A stretch of 23,341 nt of DNA, counting the filler, from an uncultured virus (IMG/VR IMGVR_UViG_2061766007_000905) (taxonomy: Duplodnaviria; Heunggongvirae; Uroviricota; Caudoviricetes). It is 3 parts of one record of this genome, joined end to end, with 100 filler letters (N's around TTAATTAATTAA, not from the genome) between each part and the next. Parts side by side here need not be neighbours in the genome. Positions count along the whole stretch, not along the records: positions 15,050 to 22,025 come from IMGVR_UViG_2061766007_000905; 2 more parts are not named here. The stretch is one strand, 5' to 3'. Numbering within the stretch: position 1 is the stretch's first letter; each line of letters begins with the position of its first letter. The notes under the pieces are model-generated. The model searched no databases. It worked only from the letters and a program-made list of their open reading frames with translations, and was not told the DNA's origin. Positions 2,191-23,080 of this stretch are shown in pieces. Position numbers and translations under genes: made by a program.

Positions 2191-3469
2191 CTACTCTGCA
2201 ATATGCTTAATATATCCAATAGCATTAGCCTTAAGCTCGCTTTCAGTCCCATACTTGTATTCATGTGCAATTACGAGACTAGAAAAGATGTTAAGATAAT
2301 GCCAACGTCTTACTTCAGTAAGCATTCTACCAAATTTCGGACCTTGATATCCGCATTCGGCTACAGCCTCGCTAAGGACATGGTTAAACGGAGCTGCAAT
2401 CTTTGCGACTTTAATAATTCTATCAAGAAGTTCTTTATCGACTCGGAAACCGGTTACGGCATCAGCAAGTTCCTGGAGCTGGTTAAAAAACTTATTATTA
2501 ACCATATCGACTTCTGCTACAATATCGTGACCAAAGTCTTGGAATTTATCGAGGTGATTAAAGCACCATTGGGCACATTTAAAGGTCTCGTTTTCCATCT
2601 TATAGTGTTGATATGCATTTCGTAAATCGGACTCCCAGAGCATGCATACGAGCGAACCAAGGTCAGTAAAGAACTCACCCATCTTATTATTTTTCCTGAT
2701 TGCACGACCACCGATTAAATTACGAGCCTTTACAGCATTGATGTAACCTTTCGGGTCAATAATCTGAAAAATACCATCAGTAACCATGTGGTCAATCATC
2801 TCATAAAGTTCAGAATAACCATAACTCATGCACTTCTTGATTTCATCGAAGACACGTTCCATAGCAATGTTAGCCAACTTATACTTAGTCTTACGAATTG
2901 CTTCTCTAACATCATCAGGAATAGTCATCTTGAACCTAGACGCAAAGCGATAGGCTCGAATGATACGTAAAGCGTCTTCTTCGAAACGTTCAGCTGGATC
3001 ACCAACTGTGCTAAGAACTTTATCTTCTAAGCACTTGATACCATTATGATAGTCGATTACATTACCATCAGCATCAATACCCATAGCATTGATAGTGAAA
3101 TCACGACGAGCCGTATCTTCCTTAAAAGACTCAGTAAAAGTAATAGAGTCAGGGTGACGACCATCAGTATATGCACCATCAGTTCTGAACTGAGTAGTTT
3201 CGAAATAAATATCATTCCACTTCACGAGAATAGTCCCGTGAACTTCACCATTATTGCTAGCAGTCTTAAACTTAGCCTTGAGCATTTCAATAGGCATGTT
3301 AGTAGCAATATCGACATCATGGATATTAGCATTATCAACCATATCCAACGTATGCATTATGATATCTCTTACACAGCCACCGACAAGATATGCCTCATAA
3401 CCGTAACTGTTAATTACTCTGCAAAGGCAACTACCGCCAAAAACTTCATAATTATATTTCGATACATCA
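2191..3469 (-). CDS. cca: CCA-adding tRNA nucleotidyltransferase (class II), 5' end in gap
   Basis: Frame is open upstream of the ORF-track start and gives YEAYLVGGCVRD; also DVDIAT, RTDGAYTDGRHP, RRDFTINAM, RFEEDALRIIRAYRF. Confidence 0.9.
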
Positions 3470-3697
3470 NNNNNNNNNNACTTTCAGTCCCATACTTGTA
3501 TTCATGTGCAATTACAAGACTAGAAAAGATGTTAAGATAATGCCAACGTCTTACTTCAGTAAGCATNNNNNNNNNNTAATTGCTTTACAAACAGCTCGAT
3601 GCTTTCATCAATCATCTTTTTTGAATTTTCAAGTTCCTTACCGTATTTCTCTTCGAAAAGATCAGCTGGACCTTTATAATAGGTATANNNNNNNNNN

Positions 3698-14457: not shown

Positions 14458-14531
14458 CGAGCATGGCGAGGTTCGAACTCGCGTATGTTGGTTAGACAGA
14501 CCAATGTGTTAGACCACTTCACCACACGCCC
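14458..14531 (-). tRNA. tRNA-Asp(GTC)
   Basis: TTGGT-CT-GTC-TA-ACCAA; G73. Confidence 0.85.
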
Positions 14532-14536
14532 AAATT

Positions 14537-14567
14537 AAAAAAGATTCCTGTGAGTTGCACAGGAATC
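14537..14567 (-). terminator. attenuator terminator before tRNA-Asp
   Basis: GATTCCTGTG-CAACT-CACAGGAATC-TTTTTT. Confidence 0.8.
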
Positions 14568-14592
14568 ATTCTTAAAACTTTACAGTTAAAAA

Positions 14593-14649
14593 CTAGATGA
14601 CCCTGTGCTTGTGTCGATCCTTATCATGCTTACCGAAACCTCGTCCGTC
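14593..14649 (-). CDS. leader peptide, 5' partial: DGRGFGKHDKDRHKHRVI*
   Basis: Frame shared with 14878-14949, with synonymous differences GGT/GGC and CGA/CGT. Confidence 0.7.
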   Translation of the reverse strand, partial: DGRGFGKHDKDRHKHRVI

Positions 14650-14661
14650 NNNNNNNNNNCG

Positions 14662-14730
14662 AGAATAGCGAGAAGTATATTTAACGGATTTACAGTCTGT
14701 ATTTTTAATAGGAACTTCTTATGCTATTTT
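14662..14730 (-). ncRNA. rod-like RNA carrying a Tyr(GTA) anticodon stem-loop and GTTCCTATT motif
   Basis: AATAGC/GCTATT and AGAAGT/ACTTCT stems around ACAGA-CT-GTA-AA-TCCGT. Confidence 0.5.
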
Positions 14731-14738
14731 GTTTGTAG

Positions 14739-14813
14739 CGATCCCAGTGAGATTCGAACTCACGAAAAACTGGTTAGACAGACCAGCGCCTTAGACCACT
14801 AGGCAATGAGACC
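14739..14813 (-). tRNA. tRNA-Asp(GTC)
   Basis: CTGGT-CT-GTC-TA-ACCAG; G73. Confidence 0.85.
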
Positions 14814-14816
14814 AAA

Positions 14817-14851
14817 TAAAAAATGATTCCCGTTTTTACACAGGAATCATT
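14817..14851 (-). terminator. attenuator terminator before tRNA-Asp
   Basis: AATGATTCCTG..CGGGAATCATT followed by T run. Confidence 0.8.
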
Positions 14852-14877
14852 CTTCAAAAACTTTATACAGTTTAATA

Positions 14878-14949
14878 CTAGATGACCCTGTGTAGGTAAC
14901 GATCCTTATCATGCTTGCCGAAACCTCGTCCGTCGCGGCGAGTCTTGCA
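14878..14949 (-). CDS. leader peptide, 5' partial: CKTRRDGRGFGKHDKDRYLHRVI*
   Basis: Translated by hand; start lost at contig end. Confidence 0.7.
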   Translation of the reverse strand, partial: CKTRRDGRGFGKHDKDRYLHRVI

Positions 14950-14993
14950 NNNNNNNNNNNNNNNNNNNNNNNNNNNNNNNNNNNNNNNNNNNN

Positions 14994-15005
14994 TTAATTA
15001 ATTAA
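14994..15005. other. artificial contig linker
   Basis: TTAATTAATTAA embedded in N run (stops in all six frames). Confidence 0.9.
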
Positions 15006-15056
15006 NNNNNNNNNNNNNNNNNNNNNNNNNNNNNNNNNNNNNNNNNNNNTATTTAG

Positions 15057-15129
15057 TACTCCGTCCCAGATTCGAACTGGGGTTAACCGATAGAAAGTCG
15101 GTTGGCTTGAACCACTGGCCGAACGGAGC
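15057..15129 (-). tRNA. tRNA-Glu(TTC)
   Basis: ACCGA-CT-TTC-TA-TCGGT; identical to 19167-19239. Confidence 0.85.
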
Positions 15130-15133
15130 ATAT

Positions 15134-15166
15134 AAAAGAAAAGTTCCTGTGTTTGTGCACAGGAAC
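15134..15166 (-). terminator. attenuator terminator before tRNA-Glu
   Basis: GTTCCTGTG-CACAAA-CACAGGAAC-TTTTCTTTT. Confidence 0.8.
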
Positions 15167-15194
15167 CGTAAATTCTCAAATACTCGGTAATTAC

Positions 15195-15293
15195 CTATGC
15201 ACGTAGCCTTGACATAAATTCGGCAAATTCGCGACCTGCGAATGCGGCGCGTTCTGCTGCAAAAAATTCATGTTCAAACTTAGTCATAGTCAT
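15195..15293 (-). CDS. leader peptide MTMTKFEHEFFAAERAAFAGREFAEFMSRLRA
   Basis: 32 codons, 18 are E/F/A; AAAGGT RBS; stop lies within antiterminator GTGCATAGG. Confidence 0.8.
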   Translation of the reverse strand: MTMTKFEHEFFAAERAAFAGREFAEFMSRLRA

Positions 15294-15453
15294 TTTGTTA
15301 CCTTTTATATTATATATAAAAATTTTTTCCTGTTTNNNNNNNNNNNNNNNNNNNNNNNNNNNNNNNNNNNNNNNNNNNNNNNNNNNNNNNNNNNNNNNNN
15401 NNNNNNNNNNNNNNNNNNNNNNNNNNNNNNNNNNNNNNNNNNNNNNNNNNNNN

Positions 15454-15501
15454 CGTTCTTACTTCAATTTATTGATCGTGTCTAGCAGACATTCATTTAA
15501 C
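15454..15501 (-). ncRNA. 5' part of structured ncRNA homologous to 19648-19782
   Basis: GTTAAATGAATGT..CTAG..ACGATCAATAAAT shared; TTTACA-17-TATATT promoter upstream. Confidence 0.55.
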
Positions 15502-15579
15502 GATATATAATATAGTAAATTATTACCTGTTTGTAAACCCCTAAAAATAAAATTATTTTTTCTGCTACCCTCAATCTAC

Positions 15580-15587
15580 TATAAATA
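15580..15587 (+). promoter_or_regulatory. T4-type late promoter
   Basis: TATAAATA upstream of AATAGGAG RBS. Confidence 0.65.
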
Positions 15588-15605
15588 ATAAAAATAGGAG
15601 AATAA

Positions 15606-16034
15606 ATGAATTTAAATGAAGCAAAACAATTACTTAAAAAATCTGGATATGTTCTTCTTAAAGAAAATACAGATTTTACTATAGATGACTTTAATATTTC
15701 AAGCGACTATGAAGGGACATCTGATTATGAACAAGATGATACTTTACCACATCCGCTTGTTTTCGTTAATCCGCCTTCTATCGAAGCCCATGCTTTTATT
15801 AAAAAATATTTCATCGACACTCAGAGTTTAATTGAGGGAACTGAAATTGAAGGTGTATATGATGACGATGATGATTTAATTGAATTTGTATTTCCAGAAA
15901 CAGATTTCTGCGACCATGAAATGAGACAAGAGTATGAAGAACTTGTCAGGTCTTTAATCGAGAAAGCATTTGAAATTGAAAATCAAAGTAACAATGACGT
16001 CATTTTAGGTGACGAAGAAATGTTTGACGTTTAA
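15606..16034 (+). CDS. acidic hypothetical late protein with MNLNEA leader
   Basis: ORF track, AGGAG RBS. Confidence 0.75.
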   Translation: MNLNEAKQLLKKSGYVLLKENTDFTIDDFNISSDYEGTSDYEQDDTLPHPLVFVNPPSIEAHAFIKKYFIDTQSLIEGTEIEGVYDDDDDLIEFVFPETDFCDHEMRQEYEELVRSLIEKAFEIENQSNNDVILGDEEMFDV

Positions 16035-16497: not shown

Positions 16498-16526
16498 AAA
16501 AACCAGGTTAAATACCTGGTTTTTTT
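16498..16526. terminator. bidirectional terminator
   Basis: AAAAACCAGGT-TAAAT-ACCTGGTTTTTTT. Confidence 0.75.
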
Positions 16527-17113
16527 AAATATGACCGAAATTTTTAATCCATTTAACTTTTATTTTAGAATTATCTTTTAATTTCAATTCTCTTTCCCCA
16601 GTATGTTCTAATGGGTCAGTCCAAATTGCATAATGTAAAATTGTGCTAGGCCAATGAACATTATTGGGATTGTTTTCTGCACAAACAATATACTTATTTG
16701 TATTTCCTGTTTTATTATATGCCCAAGTTTTGGCCATATCTAAATCATAAGTCCAACTATGACCAAGATTATCCAAATCTATATCGTCAGCAGAATTAAC
16801 GAACAATGCCCTATAAATTTCTTTGACGTCTGTATTTTTGCAGAAATCTCTATAAATGTAATCCAGATGTTCTTTTAAGAAATCTACACAATAATCAAAC
16901 CATGCTTTTACATCAGGATCAGTCAAACTTGCTTTGATTGCCTTTTTGTATTTAAATTTAATTTTGTGCTTTGCAAAAAACTTTTTCTTAAGCATCATAT
17001 ATTCAGAAAGCTCTGCAGAAGTGCATTCGAATATTTGATACATATACTCATCATTTACCGTTCCATTTAACAATTTATATAACGGATTAGCTGGATATGT
17101 TTCTTTAAACTGT
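16525..17113 (-). CDS. hypothetical protein with possible ADP-ribosyltransferase (R-S-E) motifs, 5' end in gap
   Basis: Frame open to the gap; IYRAL, GHSWT, GEREL. Confidence 0.5.
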
Positions 17114-17395
17114 NNNNNNNNNNNNNNNNNNNNNNNNNNNNNNNNNNNNNNNNNNNNNNNNNNNNNNNNNNNNNNNNNNNNNNNNNNNNNNNNNNNNNNN
17201 NNNNNNNNNNNNNNNNNNNNNNNNNAAATCTAGTTGGACTATTAAGAACATATTTCTGTTCTAATTTTATACCGCCAAATTTTATTGCAATAGTAATACC
17301 TTTAAAAAATGCATCTGGTTCATCACTAACTTTCATTTCACAAACATTAAATATATCTGTCATGTTTGGCTGAATGACAGTAAGCNNNNNNNNNN

Positions 17396-18149
17396 ACCTG
17401 TTGGGTTACAACCGAGAACTAATCCACCATTCTTTTCGCCAATCTTTACAGTTGTTCCTTTACGATATTCTGTATTCCATGTATCATTGCAATCACCACT
17501 TACAGAATAGGAATTATTACCTGCTCCCTTACCAGGAATATCGAAATCTTCAGCTTCAATTACTTCACCAAGATTAAATGCTGTTCCCTTAAATGGCTTC
17601 TGCGGTTCAGGTTCAACAATCGTTACACCATCACCAGTTGGAAGACCAGTAGAATTTACGCCTTTATTATCCTTCAAATAAGACTTCAACCATGTCATTG
17701 CTGCTCTATCTTGGTTATTCTTGATAATACCAGATGTTCCGCTATTCCAAGTTGCACCATAAATATAACCCCAAAGAGTAATACCAGCAATATGTTCATT
17801 TTCCATAAAGTAAGAAATCTGTTCCTGATAGCACTGCTTCTGAATATTATCATCATCTGTGAAAATATCGTATTCACTAATGAACATTGGCATCTGAGTC
17901 TTATTCCAAATTTCTTCAATTACAGACTTCAATGTATTAATATTTAAGCAAGAACCACCGCCGCCAGTTCCGCCGTTTCCACCACCTTGGCTCATCATAT
18001 CATGAGCTTGAAGACCATAAGCATCAACTGGAGCACCTTGCTGTTTCAATTTATTAATTAAGTCAATTCCTTCGTTCTTTTGCCATTGAACTGTATTATA
18101 ATCATTATAAATCAAAATTGCATCCGGCCAACGTTCTCTTGCCATCTTA
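17396..18149 (-). CDS. GH10 endo-xylanase C-terminal half plus start of a CBM, both ends in gaps
   Basis: LIYNDYN, DAYGLQAH, PMFISEYD (nucleophile Glu), GITLWGY, then IEAEDFD CBM6-like start. Confidence 0.85.
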
Positions 18150-18161
18150 AANNNNNNNNNN

Positions 18162-18695
18162 CTTTCTATTTTTACTTATTTTACATTTTCTTGCGATAGA
18201 CCAAAGTTCATTACTATTAAATACATTTCTTCCTTCAACCCAAAAATCTTCTACAGGTTTTTCTTTAAACTTTTTACTTTCGCCTGTATTCCTATTTGTA
18301 TACCATTTAGTACCAAATTGTGAATTAAGATTTCCTGATTGTTTTATACTTGTTAATTCTCCAACAGTTTTTATAAATTCCATACGTAAAGCTTCATATG
18401 CTCGAGAATTTATATAACGACACTTTTCTTTGGTTGATTGCCCTTGCATTCGCCAAAGTGCACATAACATTTTATGTCTTTCAACAGTTCCTTTATTATA
18501 CATTTTAACTAGTAACCAATGACAGATAAAATGTTCACGTGCCGTTAATTTAACAAGGTTTTCTTTATCGTTTGTGCCTCCTAAAGACTTTGGTTGAATA
18601 TGATGTTTTTCATAATAACCTACAAGTCTGTTTCCATTTTCAGTTTCCTTTTTTGCATTTTCAATTATCTTATAATATATAGCTTTGTAATTCAT
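18162..18695 (-). CDS. HNH homing endonuclease, 3' end in gap
   Basis: YYEKHHIQPKSLGGTNDKENLVKLTAREHFICHWLL. Confidence 0.85.
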
Positions 18696-18755
18696 ATATT
18701 ATATATAATTCTTCGTTTTCCGAACTCGTAATTTCATTATTGCGAATTCTTTTCG

Positions 18756-18826
18756 TGGACCTACGGAGAGTCGAACTCCGGCGAACAGAATGCAAATCTG
18801 CAATGCTACCATTACATCATAAGCCC
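18756..18826 (-). tRNA. tRNA-Ala(TGC)
   Basis: GCAGA-TT-TGC-AT-TCTGT; G3:U70, A73. Confidence 0.88.
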
Positions 18827-18837
18827 ATAATGTTTAG

Positions 18838-18911
18838 TGCCTCCCCTCAGAATCGGACTGAGCTACTCCGGGCTTCAACCGGGTCCAATCACCAGGTTTG
18901 GATTGAAAGGC
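18838..18911 (-). tRNA. tRNA-Phe(GAA), atypical
   Basis: CCGG-TT-GAA-GC-CCGG; divergent D arm and T loop TCCGATT. Confidence 0.65.
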
Positions 18912-18920
18912 ATATTTTAG

Positions 18921-18994
18921 TGGACCTGACGGGGAACGATCCCGTAACCTTTAGCTTGCAAAGCTACTGCGCTACCAAATTGCGCCACAAGCCC
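18921..18994 (-). tRNA. tRNA-Ala(TGC)
   Basis: TAGC-TT-TGC-AA-GCTA; G3:U70, A73. Confidence 0.88.
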
Positions 18995-19002
18995 ATATTT
19001 AG

Positions 19003-19075
19003 CGGGACCGGTAGGAATCGAACCTACGACGCTTGGCTCTTCAGGCCAACGCTCTACCTACTGAGCTACAGTCCC
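19003..19075 (-). tRNA. tRNA-Phe(GAA)
   Basis: TTGGC-CT-GAA-GA-GCCAA; full cloverleaf. Confidence 0.92.
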
Positions 19076-19084
19076 AAATTTTCG

Positions 19085-19156
19085 TGGATACATATCGGAT
19101 TCGAACCGATGCCCTCTGAGTGCAAATCAGAGATACTCCCATTATACTAATGACCC
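19085..19156 (-). tRNA. tRNA-Ala(TGC)
   Basis: TCTGA-TT-TGC-AC-TCAGA; G3:U70, bulged acceptor stem. Confidence 0.8.
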
Positions 19157-19166
19157 AAATTTTTAG

Positions 19167-19239
19167 TACTCCGTCCCAGATTCGAACTGGGGTTAACCGA
19201 TAGAAAGTCGGTTGGCTTGAACCACTGGCCGAACGGAGC
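19167..19239 (-). tRNA. tRNA-Glu(TTC)
   Basis: ACCGA-CT-TTC-TA-TCGGT. Confidence 0.85.
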
Positions 19240-19253
19240 AAATATTGTTTTTT

Positions 19254-19284
19254 AAGTGGTGTCTCCACTACTGGACTACCAGCA
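19254..19284 (-). pseudogene. remnant 5' half of a tRNA
   Basis: GCTGG-TA-GTCCAGTAGTGGAGAC-ACCAC-TT resembles acceptor 5' strand and D arm, then stops. Confidence 0.4.
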
Positions 19285-19290
19285 AAGTAT

Positions 19291-19324
19291 AAAAGAAAAG
19301 TTCCTGCGCATTGTGCACAGGAAC
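19291..19324 (-). terminator. attenuator terminator before the Glu/Ala/Phe tRNA operon
   Basis: GTTCCTGTGCA-CAA-TGCGCAGGAAC-TTTTCTTTT. Confidence 0.82.
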
Positions 19325-19350
19325 CGTTTTTTCAAACTTATTTAGGTTAA

Positions 19351-19464
19351 CTACCTAATCCTATGCACTGTATCTGAACAAAATGCTTCAAACGCTGCAG
19401 CTGCGAATTCAGCTGCGGCACGTTCTGCTGCAAAAAATTCATGTTCAAATACGTTCATAGTCAT
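19351..19464 (-). CDS. leader peptide MTMNVFEHEFFAAERAAAEFAAAAFEAFCSDTVHRIR
   Basis: 37 codons, 21 of codons 6-28 are E/F/A; AAAGGT RBS. Confidence 0.82.
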   Translation of the reverse strand: MTMNVFEHEFFAAERAAAEFAAAAFEAFCSDTVHRIR

Positions 19465-19526
19465 TTTTGTTACCTTTATATTATATATAAAAAATTTTTC
19501 CTGTTTTTTGTTATTTTACGTTGTTA

Positions 19527-19555
19527 AATATAGTAAAAAGTTTTTGGTTTGTCAA
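19527..19555 (-). promoter_or_regulatory. sigma70 promoter of leader/tRNA operon
   Basis: TTGACA-17-TATATT. Confidence 0.7.
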
Positions 19556-19579
19556 CCCCTTTTTAAAATATTTTTTTAG

Positions 19580-19643
19580 TGGGAAAGCAGGACTTTAACC
19601 TACAACATGCACGATGGCCGCTCTGACATTGAGCTATTTCCCA
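19580..19643 (-). ncRNA. tRNA-like RNA lacking a proper anticodon arm
   Basis: GGGAAA/TTTCCC acceptor, GCTC/GAGC D stem, GTAGG/CCTGC T stem; only 16 nt between D and T arms. Confidence 0.55.
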
Positions 19644-19647
19644 TGAT

Positions 19648-19782
19648 ATTAAAATAAAATGTTCTGAAGGAATCCCGATTCTCCACCTTCATGTAAGACC
19701 GTTCTTGCCGGTAATTGGCAAGCTGACCGCAACGCCGTCCTTACGTCTATTTATTGATCGTTCTAGCGAACATTCATTTAAC
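19648..19782 (-). ncRNA. unrecognised ~135 nt structured RNA
   Basis: Own TTGACA-17-TATATT promoter (19790-19818); closing stem AAATGAATGTTC/GAACATTTTATTT; inner stems GTAAGGAC/GTCTTAC, CTTGCC/GGCAAG, TGAAGG/CCTTCA. Confidence 0.6.
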
Positions 19783-19840
19783 AAGATTAAATATAGTAAA
19801 AAGTTTTTGATTTGTCAACCTTTTTTAAAATATTTTTTAG

Positions 19841-19952
19841 TGGGGAAAGCAGGATTCGAACCTACGACGCACGCCTTGAGATGAAAAATAGGAACGTTAT
19901 ATGCATTACTACGTAACGTAATACCGTTGCTCTACCACTGAGCTATTTCCCC
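19841..19952 (-). ncRNA. tRNA-like RNA with anticodon arm replaced by a ~55 nt insert
   Basis: Canonical acceptor GGGGAAA/TTTCCCC, D and T arms; insert contains GTATTAC/GTAATGC hairpin and GTTCCTATT. Confidence 0.65.
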
Positions 19953-19956
19953 ATGT

Positions 19957-20023
19957 TGTAACACGGAATGTAATTTGCTATTTAAAAAATTAATGATTTA
20001 ATAGGAACATTCTTTGCGTTACA
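19957..20023 (-). ncRNA. rod-like small RNA with GTTCCTATT motif
   Basis: Starts at expected +1 of TTTACA-17-TATATT promoter; TGTAACGC/GTGTTACA and GAATGT/ACATTC stems. Confidence 0.5.
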
Positions 20024-20066
20024 TATTAAATATAGTAAATTATTTTTATTTTGTAAACCCTATAAT

Positions 20067-20405
20067 TTATTTTTCATATTTATCTATAACATGCTTAAGC
20101 GAATCAATAACCGCTGCCGTATCTATAGGCTTAATGCTATATTTAACAGAGTCGGAATACCAGCGAGAACGTTTTTCCAGACAGTCTATCGTATTTTCTG
20201 TACATTTTGGCTTCAGTTTTAGAAACGTTTCATATCGCTCATGTTCATCTGGTGTCTGTGTAAAGAATAGAATGCCTGTTATAATAAGTGCCAAACCCCA
20301 AATTTTCTTTACGCCCTTTATCGCAAACATAATACACAATCCCAACGTTATAAATACCGCCGTAAAAATTATAAGGCATAGCGCAAAAAAATTTATAATA
20401 ACCAT
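20067..20405 (-). CDS. membrane protein (two TM helices)
   Basis: Start moved to MVIINFFAL at 20405. Confidence 0.65.
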   Translation of the reverse strand: MVIINFFALCLIIFTAVFITLGLCIMFAIKGVKKIWGLALIITGILFFTQTPDEHERYETFLKLKPKCTENTIDCLEKRSRWYSDSVKYSIKPIDTAAVIDSLKHVIDKYEK

Positions 20406-20412
20406 ATATACC

Positions 20413-20913
20413 TTATCGTGTTTCAATCCGTTTGCATGCTGCAGCATACATCTTTTCCCAATCTGGCGTAGGCTCTTCATCAGGTTCATGTTTTTCATCC
20501 TCGCATGAACCATAAGCACATTTACATTTTGGACAATATACATTACCGTCCAACGGCATATAAGCTCTTAGATGGTCCTTATCGTCGATATAAACGGCAA
20601 AATGAATAGGGAATTCCCAATCTCCGCCTGCGAAACACCAGATAATCGATGTTCCGTCTGGAAGTTTTCCATATTTTTGGCTTTCAAAATCTTCTTCCGA
20701 ATTTTCCCAATCAAATTCGAGCTTTGACAAGTCTTTTTCTATTTGAGGATTCATGTTACTGTATGCGACACAATTATGAAGCCACTCCTGAATTACTTGT
20801 TCAGAATCAGTTTCATCCATATCCTCGTCATACCCGCCATCTTCTTTAAGCTGGTCAAGCATCTTTTCAATAATATCTGTCCTTGTACATCCTTTCTTTG
20901 CATATCTTGGCAT
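20413..20913 (-). CDS. hypothetical protein (AGGDWEFP, CPKC motifs)
   Basis: ORF track, AAGGA RBS. Confidence 0.75.
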   Translation of the reverse strand: MPRYAKKGCTRTDIIEKMLDQLKEDGGYDEDMDETDSEQVIQEWLHNCVAYSNMNPQIEKDLSKLEFDWENSEEDFESQKYGKLPDGTSIIWCFAGGDWEFPIHFAVYIDDKDHLRAYMPLDGNVYCPKCKCAYGSCEDEKHEPDEEPTPDWEKMYAAACKRIETR

Positions 20914-20924
20914 AATTATTTCCT

Positions 20925-21671
20925 TTAAATAGTCCAGACTACTACAGCCTTGAATTTTTTGTGTTTTTCCTGTTCTTGCATTTCAATTTGTTGGAAGATT
21001 TGCTTAATTCGATTGATCATGTTAAGAGAAGCGGTATACACGTCCGCACAGTCAAGACCGTCCGCAATATTGGTAAATTCAATCGGATGAGTCAAATCGA
21101 TCACATACTTATCAGTATTCGGCATCAAATAATTGGTCTTACCGATTTTACTGATATTCGAATTCAAAAAATCTTCATAACTCACATACTTATTGACATA
21201 TAAATCATAAAAATAATCATATAAGTCTATTAATACACGATAATCACGTATAACGAACGTCGTATTGAGTTTTTTCTCGTCGGTAAGGTATTTTACTAAC
21301 TCGACATTTTCTTGCTTTTTAAGATATCCTATAATCAATTTACGGATAACCAGTTTTGTCCACAAATGCAATGCCTTCTGGTTATGCTCGTAAGCCGGAA
21401 TAGTCTTGCCTTCATACAAAGGCAAAGAATTTGCAATCGTTGACGCCTTATAAAACGACATATCATTGGTACAGGTATATTTTTCATTGTTTTCAATGAT
21501 ATCAATGACATGTAAGAACTTGTCAAGCTTTTTACTGTCAAGAACCCAAAACTGCTCAGAAATAGAGCTGTATTCCCTTGCATCATAAACTTTAGAATTT
21601 ATATTAAACGCGAATGATTCCCTATCGCATTCGTATGTTCCAGGTTGTCGTGAAAGATTATACTTCATCAT
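20925..21671 (-). CDS. hypothetical protein
   Basis: Start moved to MMKYNLS at 21671 with GGAG RBS; upstream part of the ORF-track call overlaps a tRNA. Confidence 0.75.
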   Translation of the reverse strand: MMKYNLSRQPGTYECDRESFAFNINSKVYDAREYSSISEQFWVLDSKKLDKFLHVIDIIENNEKYTCTNDMSFYKASTIANSLPLYEGKTIPAYEHNQKALHLWTKLVIRKLIIGYLKKQENVELVKYLTDEKKLNTTFVIRDYRVLIDLYDYFYDLYVNKYVSYEDFLNSNISKIGKTNYLMPNTDKYVIDLTHPIEFTNIADGLDCADVYTASLNMINRIKQIFQQIEMQEQEKHKKFKAVVVWTI

Positions 21672-21739
21672 ATTATTCTCCAAAAGTAAGTACAATATAA
21701 AAAAAGAATTGACTTTCGTCAACCCTAGTTTTATTTTTA

Positions 21740-21812
21740 CGCCGAAAGAGTGACTCGAACACCCAACCATCGCATTACGGAAGCGCTGCGCTACCAATTA
21801 CGCCATTCCGGC
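21740..21812 (-). tRNA. tRNA-Thr(CGT), atypical (C33)
   Basis: Positional loop TC-CGT-AA, GCC acceptor start. Confidence 0.65.
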
Positions 21813-21819
21813 ATTATAG

Positions 21820-21891
21820 AGCTGGAGATAGGACTTGAACCTACAACTTGCGGATTACTAAACCGCTATTCTACCATTGAATTACTCCAGC
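21820..21891 (-). tRNA. tRNA-Thr(AGT)
   Basis: GCGGT-TT-AGT-AA-TCCGC; full cloverleaf. Confidence 0.75.
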
Positions 21892-21894
21892 AAA

Positions 21895-21965
21895 GGCGGG
21901 TCGTAACAACCTTTTGATTAGCAATCAAACGCTCTAACTTGAGCTAAATAGGAACGACCTGTGCC
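21895..21965 (-). ncRNA. T-armless tRNA-Ser(GCT)-like RNA with GTTCCTATT motif
   Basis: GGTCGT/ACGACC stem, TAGCTCAAGTTAGAGC D arm, TTTGA-TT-GCT-AA-TCAAA arm, no T arm. Confidence 0.55.
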
Positions 21966-21976
21966 AAAATTTTTAG

Positions 21977-22025
21977 TCAGAATGAGAGGTTATGATCCTC
22001 CGACCTCACCGCCCCGAACGGTGCG
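21977..22025 (-). tRNA. tRNA-Pro(CGG), 5' part in gap
   Basis: CACCG-TT-CGG-GG-CGGTG. Confidence 0.75.
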
Positions 22026-22126: not shown

Positions 22127-22330
22127 GGTCCGGCAGATGAAGGACTTACCAAATACGTATTGCCTAAGATTATTTCTAACGAAGCATATACCAAGACCGG
22201 AAAATTCAATTCCGGTTATCTTAGGGATGCAATAACCGAAATTTACGAAACTGAAAATATGCCGGGAATTCTTAAGTTCTGCAGAGAATTCTTGAAACCG
22301 ATTCTTGAAAGAAATTCGACAATGTGCTAG
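22127..22330 (+). CDS. 3' end of hypothetical protein
   Basis: Open frame GPADEGLTKY...RNSTMC*. Confidence 0.5.
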   Translation, partial: GPADEGLTKYVLPKIISNEAYTKTGKFNSGYLRDAITEIYETENMPGILKFCREFLKPILERNSTMC

Positions 22331-22470
22331 GAGACATTATGATACAAGTCAGCAAGCAGAAGACTAACGAACCGCTTTATTCAATGGGCCGACATAATAT
22401 NNNNNNNNNNTTGTAGAGAATTCTTGAACCCGGTTCTTGAAAGAAATTCTACAATGTGCTAGGAGACATT

Positions 22471-23080
22471 ATGATACAAGTTAGCAAGCAGAAGACTAAC
22501 GAACCGCTTTATTCAATGGGCCGACATAATATGAATCAGGAACAGATTTGGGAAACCGAAGATAACGGCGGCTTTGAGATGATTACGGTAATGGGCGAGG
22601 CCAGAAACTGCCGAGAATATACTGAAGAATCGGTAAAAAAGGCGGTCGCTGACTTTAACGAACGTATAAAGCGAGGCGAAGGTATTGCAGTAACTATGCT
22701 GGACGATTTTNNNNNNNNNNAAATATACCGAAGAATCCGTAAAAAAGGCAGTCGCCGACTTTAACAAACGTATAAAGCGAGGCGAAGGTATTGCAGTAAC
22801 TATGCTGGACGATTTTACTATACCGATCGATAAGGCCTATGCTAAAATAAACCATGCTGAAGTTGTCGACGGTAATAAAATCAAGATGCATATGACGCTC
22901 TTGGACACTGAACAGGGCAATTATATAAAGCAGCTTATCGAATATGGTTCGAAAGAACCAGTTTATTGCAATACGAAAGAAGATCTTGAACTTAAAGTAG
23001 ATGGCATAGTCGACAAAGACCGTCTCGATAATATCTTAAACGTAACAATTGACAGCACAAATGTGTCACCAATAATCTAA
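22471..23080 (+). CDS. degenerate T4 gp21 prohead protease-like protein (split by gap and duplicated segment)
   Basis: NCREYTEESVKKAVADFNERIKRG and LLDTEQGNYIKQLIEYG resemble gp21 NGR.Y and ILDTP.G motifs. Confidence 0.5.

Follow-up and report, generated by a model that had tools for sequence, protein, structure and literature searches.

A probable natural allele of a predicted ribosome-coupled attenuator upstream of a Glu/Phe/Ala tRNA cluster in a large T4-like phage

The window and its relatives

The stretch of DNA analyzed here (23,341 nucleotides with filler letters; hereafter, the window) comes from a large T4-like phage and is a scaffold with gaps. It encodes a terminase, a neck-like protein, a nucleotidyltransferase, an HNH protein and a GH10 xylanase (Pfam), together with 16–17 tRNA genes that all lie on the minus strand. 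Features of the tRNA regions are listed in Table 1. Pattern and protein searches reached relatives with genomes of 410–424 kb as well as fragments, and these were used as stand-ins for the whole genome of the window: G001 is 424 kb with terminal repeats (100% complete), G002 is 411 kb (98% complete) and G006 is 416 kb (100% complete). G004 is 99% identical to window positions 19050–22025. The gene at 16525–17073 has no match in five relatives. Sequencing runs containing the window stretch are, where labeled, mostly gut metagenomes, and parts of it also occur in six RNA runs.

The xylanase gene (17360–18145, minus strand) is phage-borne and is truncated by a scaffold gap, the full form being about 600 residues. 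It is present in G001, G006 and G007 and absent in G002 and G008, and many relatives carry PF03422. The host of the phage is likely Fibrobacter, as judged by this one gene, because the phage xylanase is 84–86% identical to Fibrobacter enzymes. The gene at 2191–3357 (minus strand) encodes a nucleotidyltransferase of the poly(A)-polymerase/CCA-adding family. As an encoded CCA end is missing from most of the phage tRNA genes, this enzyme may have a role in maturing phage tRNAs. The HNH gene (18147–18695) is located within or behind differing tRNA clusters across relatives (L009–L014), a placement that seems to resemble that of a mobile homing element of tRNA arrays.

Table 1. Features of the leader units and tRNA clusters in the window
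Feature	Position	Strand	Basis or remark
D/R/G/K/H leader 3' part and switch, G005-like allele, before Asp-Asp...Gly-Gly-Lys-Lys-His	14534..14649	-	sequence, covariance model, terminator scan
D/R/G/K/H leader 3' part and switch, G001-like allele, before tRNA-Asp	14816..14949	-	sequence, covariance model, terminator scan
Palindrome within N runs, presumably an artificial linker; second at about 22070	14995..15006		sequence
tRNA-Glu, first gene of the putatively controlled cluster	15056..15129	-	Phe-Ala-Phe next in gap-spanning contigs (L194; run X1)
Terminator U tract, allele B	15132..15141	-	consensus scan
Predicted intrinsic terminator hairpin, segments 3:4, 10 pairs, allele B; 5' arm also used by antiterminator	15142..15167	-	fold, consensus scan, covariation
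Predicted antiterminator 5' strand (segment 2, GTGCATAGG), allele B; includes stop codon	15194..15202	-	fold and covariation
Leader ORF, allele B, 32 codons, E/F/A-rich, sensing run ending at Phe26	15195..15293	-	sequence; 98% identical in L194
Promoter-like AT-rich octamer and purine-rich ribosome-binding site	15301..15316	-	sequence; recurs upstream of most leader units; putative function
Sigma70-type promoter match, 10/12, upstream of conserved non-coding stretch	15509..15537	-	1 match vs 2.3 expected by chance; weak alone
tRNA cluster Glu-Ala-Phe-Ala-Phe-Ala	18755..19239	-	tRNA calling
Allele A switch: predicted antiterminator, terminator 19325-19299, U tract	19290..19372	-	folding, covariance model
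Leader ORF, allele A, 37 codons, E/F/A-rich, sensing run ending at Phe28	19351..19464	-	same in G001, G004
N/T/P cluster tail; leader beyond gap, seen in G004	21739..22025	-	tRNA calling; G004 comparison

Anatomy of the E/F/A leader units

Two units of the window carry leaders rich in Glu, Phe and Ala (E/F/A) codons, one at 19.4 kb (allele A) and one at 15.2 kb (allele B). The order on the sequence is a ribosome-binding site, a short ORF, a codon run, a strand at the end of the ORF that is complementary to a terminator arm, a terminator and tRNA genes. As stated in the initial annotation, the 15.2-kb leader is E/F/A-rich: these codons make up 18 of its 32 (binomial P = 1.0e-6 for a background of 0.177, derived from 73,661 codons of G006). 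With strict wobble rules, tRNAs of the unit's own cluster read 15 of the 26 codons in the sensing zone of this leader (P = 4e-6). In the allele A cluster, the second Phe tRNA (about 18838–18911) is called by ARAGORN only at a lowered threshold. A second sigma70-type promoter is found in contig L194 directly upstream of the leader, at the position of the window's gap.

The allele B leader and the 37-codon leader of allele A have a 12-residue block in common, and both keep the element GTGCATAGG, which, as noted before, is read in different frames: it is one base out of frame between 15293–15195 and 19464–19351. The TAG of GTGCATAGG is the stop codon of the allele B leader, and the stop of allele A lies 6 nt beyond GTGCATAGG. 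Despite the differing length and frame, the last Phe codon is located 15–16 nt upstream of the antiterminator strand in both alleles, a distance of about one ribosome half-footprint (footprint assumed to be +13 nt).

In allele B, GTGCATAGG is predicted to pair with CCTGTGCAC (15163–15155) at −15.2 kcal/mol (z = −2.85; 2 of 200 shuffles as good), forming an antiterminator with a 9-bp outer helix. CCTGTGCAC overlaps the 5' arm of the terminator (15167–15132), which is also predicted at −15.2 kcal/mol (z = −5.4; 0 of 200 shuffles as good) and is followed by the U tract and tRNA-Glu. A consensus terminator scan of 14500–15620 yielded four sites, including three unit terminators, against 0.4 expected from shuffles.

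Probable allelic origin of the two E/F/A units

The 15.2-kb unit was initially taken as a second, diverged leader of the same genome, and this interpretation is not upheld. The piece containing it (15051–15335) lies between N gaps beside a palindromic scaffold linker, which presumably represents an artificial join of the kind usual in assembly practice. In the gap-free contig L194, the promoter, leader, switch, Glu-Phe-Ala-Phe-Ala tRNA genes and HNH gene occur in that order; its downstream part is 96% identical to window 18555–19081. Seven metagenome contigs have the shared leader start, of which six carry allele A and L194 alone carries allele B. The Asp/Gly/Lys/His leaders of the window match single copies in two relatives (97.6% identity in G001 and 99% in G005). 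Because of L194, the join seen in run X1 (see below), the single copies in relatives and the Asp leaders matching different relatives, the four window leaders most likely represent two loci with two alleles each, the window being a strain mosaic, and the apparent duplicate is most likely an artefact of strain mixing.

It is very unlikely that the E/F/A cluster was duplicated in tandem within one genome and that the 15.2-kb unit is a true second copy. Both copies stand on one window scaffold, and a collapsed duplication would likewise leave a leader–Glu stub at the gap; also, run X3 contains 0.88 of the allele B words together with a 258-nt contig over allele A, which a strain mixture explains equally well. 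However, G001 and G002 have one full-length E/F/A leader match each. In a 10,095-bp contig of run X1, window 18833–19077 runs directly into 15051–15335 and then on to 17385, with one difference from the allele B piece over 285 nt, linking the allele B leader to Phe-Ala-Phe tRNAs while bypassing allele A; the gene order is the same as in L194. In addition, there is reason to doubt that the scaffold correctly links the two copies. The xylanase ORF corresponds only to the C-terminal 242 residues of a protein of 604 residues (100% identity) and adjoins the gap at about 18151, where two run X3 contigs diverge from the window; in G006 and G007, the xylanase gene is located about 8 kb upstream of a single E/F/A leader. 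Other side-by-side near-duplicates at window gaps (D6, D10, D12) also argue against duplication. The region 19182–19334 is without cover in runs X1 and X11, which was not counted as evidence.

Near-identical stretches flank small N gaps at window 22280–22532, 22616–22816 and 2240–3566, which are further signs of strain variants in the assembly.

Leader units of the phage family

As judged from the sequences, most tRNA clusters of the family are preceded by their own leader unit, with six or seven units per genome. In the regions of the relatives examined, 40 leader units were catalogued: seven in G001, six each in G002, G003 and G006, and 15 in fragments and the window. The leader classes are N/P/T/V, N/T/P, E/F/A, D/R/G/K/H, L/S/W, Y/C/S/M and Q/K/R/I, with strain-dependent additions of I/V in E/F/A, C/Q in L/S/W and I/Q in Y/C/S/M. 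Every unit consists of a short ORF, a terminator 22–34 nt past the stop and downstream tRNAs, the terminator of the G001 Q/K unit being found only with a relaxed search. A few solitary tRNAs and one G006 cluster occur without such a leader. When the first 400 of the 416 kb of G006 were searched for the promoter-like motif followed by a short ORF, 13 matches were obtained; five precede tRNAs, and all five are catalogued units. A switch-pattern scan of viral contigs gave 87 loci, 19 of which have a tRNA within 400 nt and leaders of the D/R/G/K/H or E/F/A type.

A further leader, rich in Pro, Thr and Ser codons, had been predicted beyond position 22025. In G004, a leader does exist beyond the gap, in front of Asn-Asn-Pro-Pro-Pro...Thr-Arg tRNAs, but its 21 codons include seven Asn, three Thr, two Pro and no Ser; thus, it is rich in Asn, Thr and Pro, not in Ser.

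The Q/K/R/I units L090 (G001) and L213 (G006) have no clear ribosome-binding site and, unlike other units, are preceded by the motif TATAAATA, which is presumably the T4 late promoter consensus.

Codon match between leaders and downstream tRNAs

Anticodons were assigned by ARAGORN and codons were matched by a strict wobble rule. Leaders were split into a sensing zone and a downstream zone where a modelled ribosome starts covering the antiterminator; the zone boundary was taken from folding and cluster spans were assigned by the analyst, and the automatic tRNA calls included a few doubtful tRNAs and missed some real ones. In 37 distinct leaders, the unit's own cluster reads 532 of 807 codons in the sensing zone versus 39 of 225 in the downstream zone, P values from these phages overstating independence because the phages are related. 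The observed pairing of leaders with clusters is the single best of 5040 possible assignments in G001, of 720 in G002, G003 and G006, and of 6 in L027. The initial annotation proposed that the switch carries interchangeable codon cassettes and regarded tRNA sets unrelated to the leader codons as the contrary case. The matching agrees with the proposal, and the contrary case was not seen, as the true pairing ranks first in all four genomes.

The match extends to synonymous codons. Where a cluster has only one of two synonymous groups, leader codons belong to that group in 48 of 49 instances for Ser, 25 of 25 for Arg, 29 of 31 for Lys, 19 of 19 for Ile and 15 of 18 for Gln. Among the 11 L/S/W and Y-class units, the presence of Cys codons coincides with that of tRNA-Cys without exception: in G001–G003, tRNA-Cys is in the Y-class cluster and the Y-class leaders have 3–4 Cys codons, whereas in G006 and L027 it is in the L/S/W cluster, the L/S/W leaders have two Cys codons and the Y-class sensing zones have none. 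Similarly, Gln codons and the tRNA both enter the L/S/W unit in G006, the E/F/A units of G003 and G006 contain both Ile codons and the corresponding tRNA, and seven Ala codons and tRNA-Ala both enter the Asp unit in L008. Cys, Gln, Ile, Val and Ala tRNAs mostly switch clusters along with leader codons.

Exceptions exist. The L135 leader contains four Ile and two Val codons, but neither tRNA was called in its cluster. L015, a short contig, has four Ile codons with no tRNA-Ile called, and an Ile-like tRNA of the G002 Y-class cluster was missed by the filter. The Y-class leader of G002 (L094 3300–3395) has an in-frame stop at codon 9, which is identical in G008 (L307) and may make the Y-class cluster of these phages constitutive.

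Covariation and folding of the switch

All four leader units of the window contain the core CAYAGG ... CCTGTG-loop-partner-U tract, as described initially. The view that the element is conserved as RNA gains support from compensatory changes in both helices, while frames and residues differ among the units; covariation, whose absence would have spoken against a conserved switch, is therefore present. In the terminator, 91% of 280 alignment cells are paired and 31 are changed on both sides (0 of 500 shuffles as high), these two-sided changes affecting six of 10 pairs in 28 sequences. In the antiterminator, 89% of 180 cells are paired with 14 two-sided changes (0 of 500 shuffles as high), affecting four of nine pairs in 20 sequences and including a pair that is C-G in the E/F/A-plus-Asp classes and U-A in the N/T/P class. 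As segment 2 of all classes is not in register in the MAFFT alignment, the antiterminator was counted on subsets of 20 and 8 rows, the L/S/W unit of L027 being outside both. In the 8-sequence alignment, which combines L/S/W and Q/K units, pairing amounts to 87.5% and is not significant (46–183 of 500 shuffles as high). When segment 3 carries a single change in the L/S/W, Y or Q/K class, both of its fold-predicted partners carry the matching change.

In full-length equilibrium folding, the terminator is favored at every ribosome position in both E/F/A copies of the window, which suggests that the switch would need co-transcriptional kinetics; five of six E. coli attenuators also favor the terminator throughout. 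In co-transcriptional snapshots, 23 of 40 phage units and four of six E. coli controls passed a pairing-probability measure. Allele B fails on this measure (0.76 still paired at the stop), and an energy measure was adopted after allele B and 16 other phage units had failed. The energy for freeing the terminator 5' arm of allele B is calculated to fall from 11.2 kcal/mol with the ribosome in the codon run to 3.0 with the ribosome at the stop. The decrease is at least 6 kcal/mol in 39 of 40 units, the exception being the G001 Q/K unit with almost no change (6.8 to 5.6). For E. coli thrL, the value falls from 12.2 to 0.0. A null set of 139 terminator-like hairpins in G006 has a median of 1.9, and its top three are leader units; among the six E. 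coli controls, however, the energy measure separates only thrL and pheL. Without a ribosome, the arm of allele B costs 7.1 kcal/mol to free versus 0.2–1.7 in the E. coli controls, and this cost is low only in the L/S/W and Q/K classes. A strong anti-antiterminator (1:2) is not predicted in the E/F/A, N/T/P and Y classes.

The null set also contains four other terminator-like hairpins at G006 loci L204, L214 and L211 with strong upstream competitors (8–10 kcal/mol). These are possibly further attenuators located before protein genes.

Possible common origin of the switch classes

A covariance model, R1, was trained on E/F/A, D/R/G/K/H and N/T/P units and one Q/K unit. R1 detects all four window units with E values of 3.5e-11 to 9.5e-8, the 15.2-kb copy being in the training set. 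Its strong matches in 830 kb are leader units only. Five whole records contain at least 13 matches below E 1e-6, 11 of which coincide with catalogued units, and two matches in G007 have the same scores as G006 units. The three untrained Q/K units give weak matches (23–25 bits, E 0.2–0.5), and a weak match is present at G002 147405 (E 0.006). In the 830 kb, R1 detected no L/S/W, Y-class (Y/C/S/M) or N/P/T/V unit; the distant phages L021, L024 and L025, which have a single leader each, yielded no match at E < 1, and five Fibrobacter genomes yielded none among 150 candidates scored per genome, the last result saying nothing on absence.

The initial annotation assumed one ancestral switch and suggested scanning relatives with a covariance model. 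The scan recovers the window units but leaves the L/S/W, Y/C/S/M and N/P/T/V classes undetected, and the assumption is supported for only some of the classes. A shared core aligned in register supports a common ancestor for the E/F/A, D/R/G/K/H and N/T/P classes. The low scores of the untrained Q/K units give weaker support to the inclusion of the Q/K/R/I class.

A model for codon-specific attenuation

The 15.2-kb segment is very probably a natural allele of a predicted ribosome-coupled transcription attenuator. It would gate the Glu/Phe/Ala tRNA cluster and is one among the six or seven units of this kind. The modular switch is real at the sequence level and, with similarly high confidence, functional. 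When Glu, Phe or Ala codons are decoded fast, the ribosome would reach the stop and cover GTGCATAGG, allowing the terminator to form and ending transcription ahead of tRNA-Glu. A ribosome lingering at or before Phe26 would allow GTGCATAGG to pair with CCTGTGCAC before the 3' arm exists, and polymerase would continue into the tRNA genes. Newly made tRNAs would relieve the stall, resulting in negative feedback.

The units probably sense whether particular usable tRNAs are in supply, which changes through loss, cleavage or shortage in infection, and not the amino-acid pool alone, because leaders split synonymous groups in step with the downstream isoacceptors. In an extended form of the model, held with somewhat better than even confidence, the units would constitute a code-wide set of six or seven stalling sensors, each switching on only the back-up tRNAs that the cell has lost (e.g., through anticodon-cutting defences), with leader codons and tRNA genes reshuffled jointly as modules between strains. 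A sensor that would switch on a cluster in response to slow reading of its own codons favors on-demand replacement over constant codon compensation, and the leaders would tell which isoacceptors the phage expects to run short. A tRNA-loss signal agrees with the idea, expressed in the accessible parts of two reports, that phages supply tRNAs in place of host tRNAs destroyed by anticodon nucleases (PMC10264068; PMC11555353).

The same attenuator might instead be tuned to host amino-acid starvation, timing tRNA synthesis to the nutrient state through uncharged tRNA. This is the less likely setting. A stalled ribosome cannot distinguish uncharged from lost tRNA, and all characterized attenuators of such design respond to amino-acid limitation, according to the consulted part of a review (PMC1183508); however, additional tRNA would presumably be no cure for an amino-acid shortage, which makes tRNA loss or shortage the likelier signal, and a split of synonymous groups that tracks isoacceptors is unneeded for amino-acid sensing. 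It is improbable that the ribosome has no regulatory part at all, the terminator being constitutive or overridden by a phage antitermination protein and the ORF being a relic or serving another purpose. The preference for the terminator throughout equilibrium folding, the broken leader in G002 and G008 and the mismatched leader in L135 are in line with this idea, but it leaves unexplained why codon matching is confined upstream of the antiterminator, why tRNAs and leader codons move together, and why the antiterminator shows compensatory changes. Direct binding of uncharged tRNA to the leader RNA, as in a T-box, is the most remote of these explanations. T-box riboswitches also link the tRNA state to the choice between antiterminator and terminator; however, Rfam gives only tRNA matches in the window and six related loci, and the units, in place of a single specifier, possess a ribosome-binding site together with numerous in-frame codons that cover up to six amino acids.

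Relation to known systems

In ribosome-mediated attenuation, slow decoding of regulatory codons permits read-through (PMC1183508). The predicted phage units are like the trpL, hisL, leuL and pheL leaders and the multivalent thrL and ilv leaders in having an ORF that contains regulatory codons, 2:3 and 3:4 hairpins that exclude each other, a U tract and downstream genes, as far as the part of this review consulted describes them (PMC1183508). In the energy calculation, E. coli thrL has the same profile as the phage units. Unlike the enterobacterial attenuators, which control biosynthetic enzymes, the phage units would control tRNA genes, and six or seven of them per genome divide the code by synonymous groups; in addition, a strong 1:2 hairpin is predicted for only some classes. 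Attenuation is textbook knowledge for amino-acid enzymes. Attenuators control genes that relieve the sensed shortage, and the tRNA clusters correspond to this in logic, whereas textbook members encode enzymes. The E. coli pheM attenuator of pheST, encoding phenylalanyl-tRNA synthetase, responds to the supply of charged tRNA and controls a part of the translation machinery; unlike the phage units, it is chromosomal, senses one amino acid and has a protein-coding target. The T-box riboswitch makes a tRNA-dependent choice between antiterminator and terminator, whereas the anatomy of the phage units is translation-dependent and no Rfam T-box match was found in the window or the six related loci.

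The nearest inducible tRNA array found in print, in the sources as far as accessible, is the trn operon of Anabaena, which is repressed by TrcR and turned on under translational stress (PMC10272220). There, a protein repressor acts on one array, and the abstract describes no codon-specific leader peptide (PMC10272220). Work on anticodon nucleases supplies a motive, namely tRNA loss in infection, but the accessible part describes no such sensor and has no occurrence of 'attenuat', 'leader' or 'promoter' (PMC10264068); likewise, 'attenuat' and 'leader' do not occur in the accessible part of PMC7824862. In a search of titles and the starts of abstracts, with subscription journals and supplements outside its range, neither attenuators on phage tRNA genes nor a bank of codon-specific attenuators over tRNA genes was found. 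To known attenuators, this locus family adds a partition of the code among several units, a match that extends to synonymous codons, and tRNAs that move together with leader codons.

Other elements near the leader units

Distant phages have one mixed-codon leader and terminator before a long tRNA array (L021 9079, L024 8722, L025 9387 and L029 6892; 0-based starts), and in L021, L024 and L025 a clear complementary strand is present at the end of the leader. A single mixed leader before a long array is possibly the ancestral layout.

A conserved stretch of about 130 nt is located upstream of the E/F/A leader (window 19655–19790, minus strand, with a remnant at 15454–15510; L194 886–1006; L096 6300–6430). 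It has its own promoter match and is also found upstream of the N/P/T/V leader in G001 and G003. Rfam gives no match for this stretch and its fold is no better than that of shuffles (z = −0.5); it is possibly a novel RNA.

Two tRNA-like genes without a normal anticodon arm are present at 19841–19952 and 19579–19643 (minus strand), each with its own promoter match. One has a long two-helix insert and one is shortened, and the Rfam tRNA scores are 50 and 41 bits. tRNA-like elements of a similar kind precede leaders in relatives.
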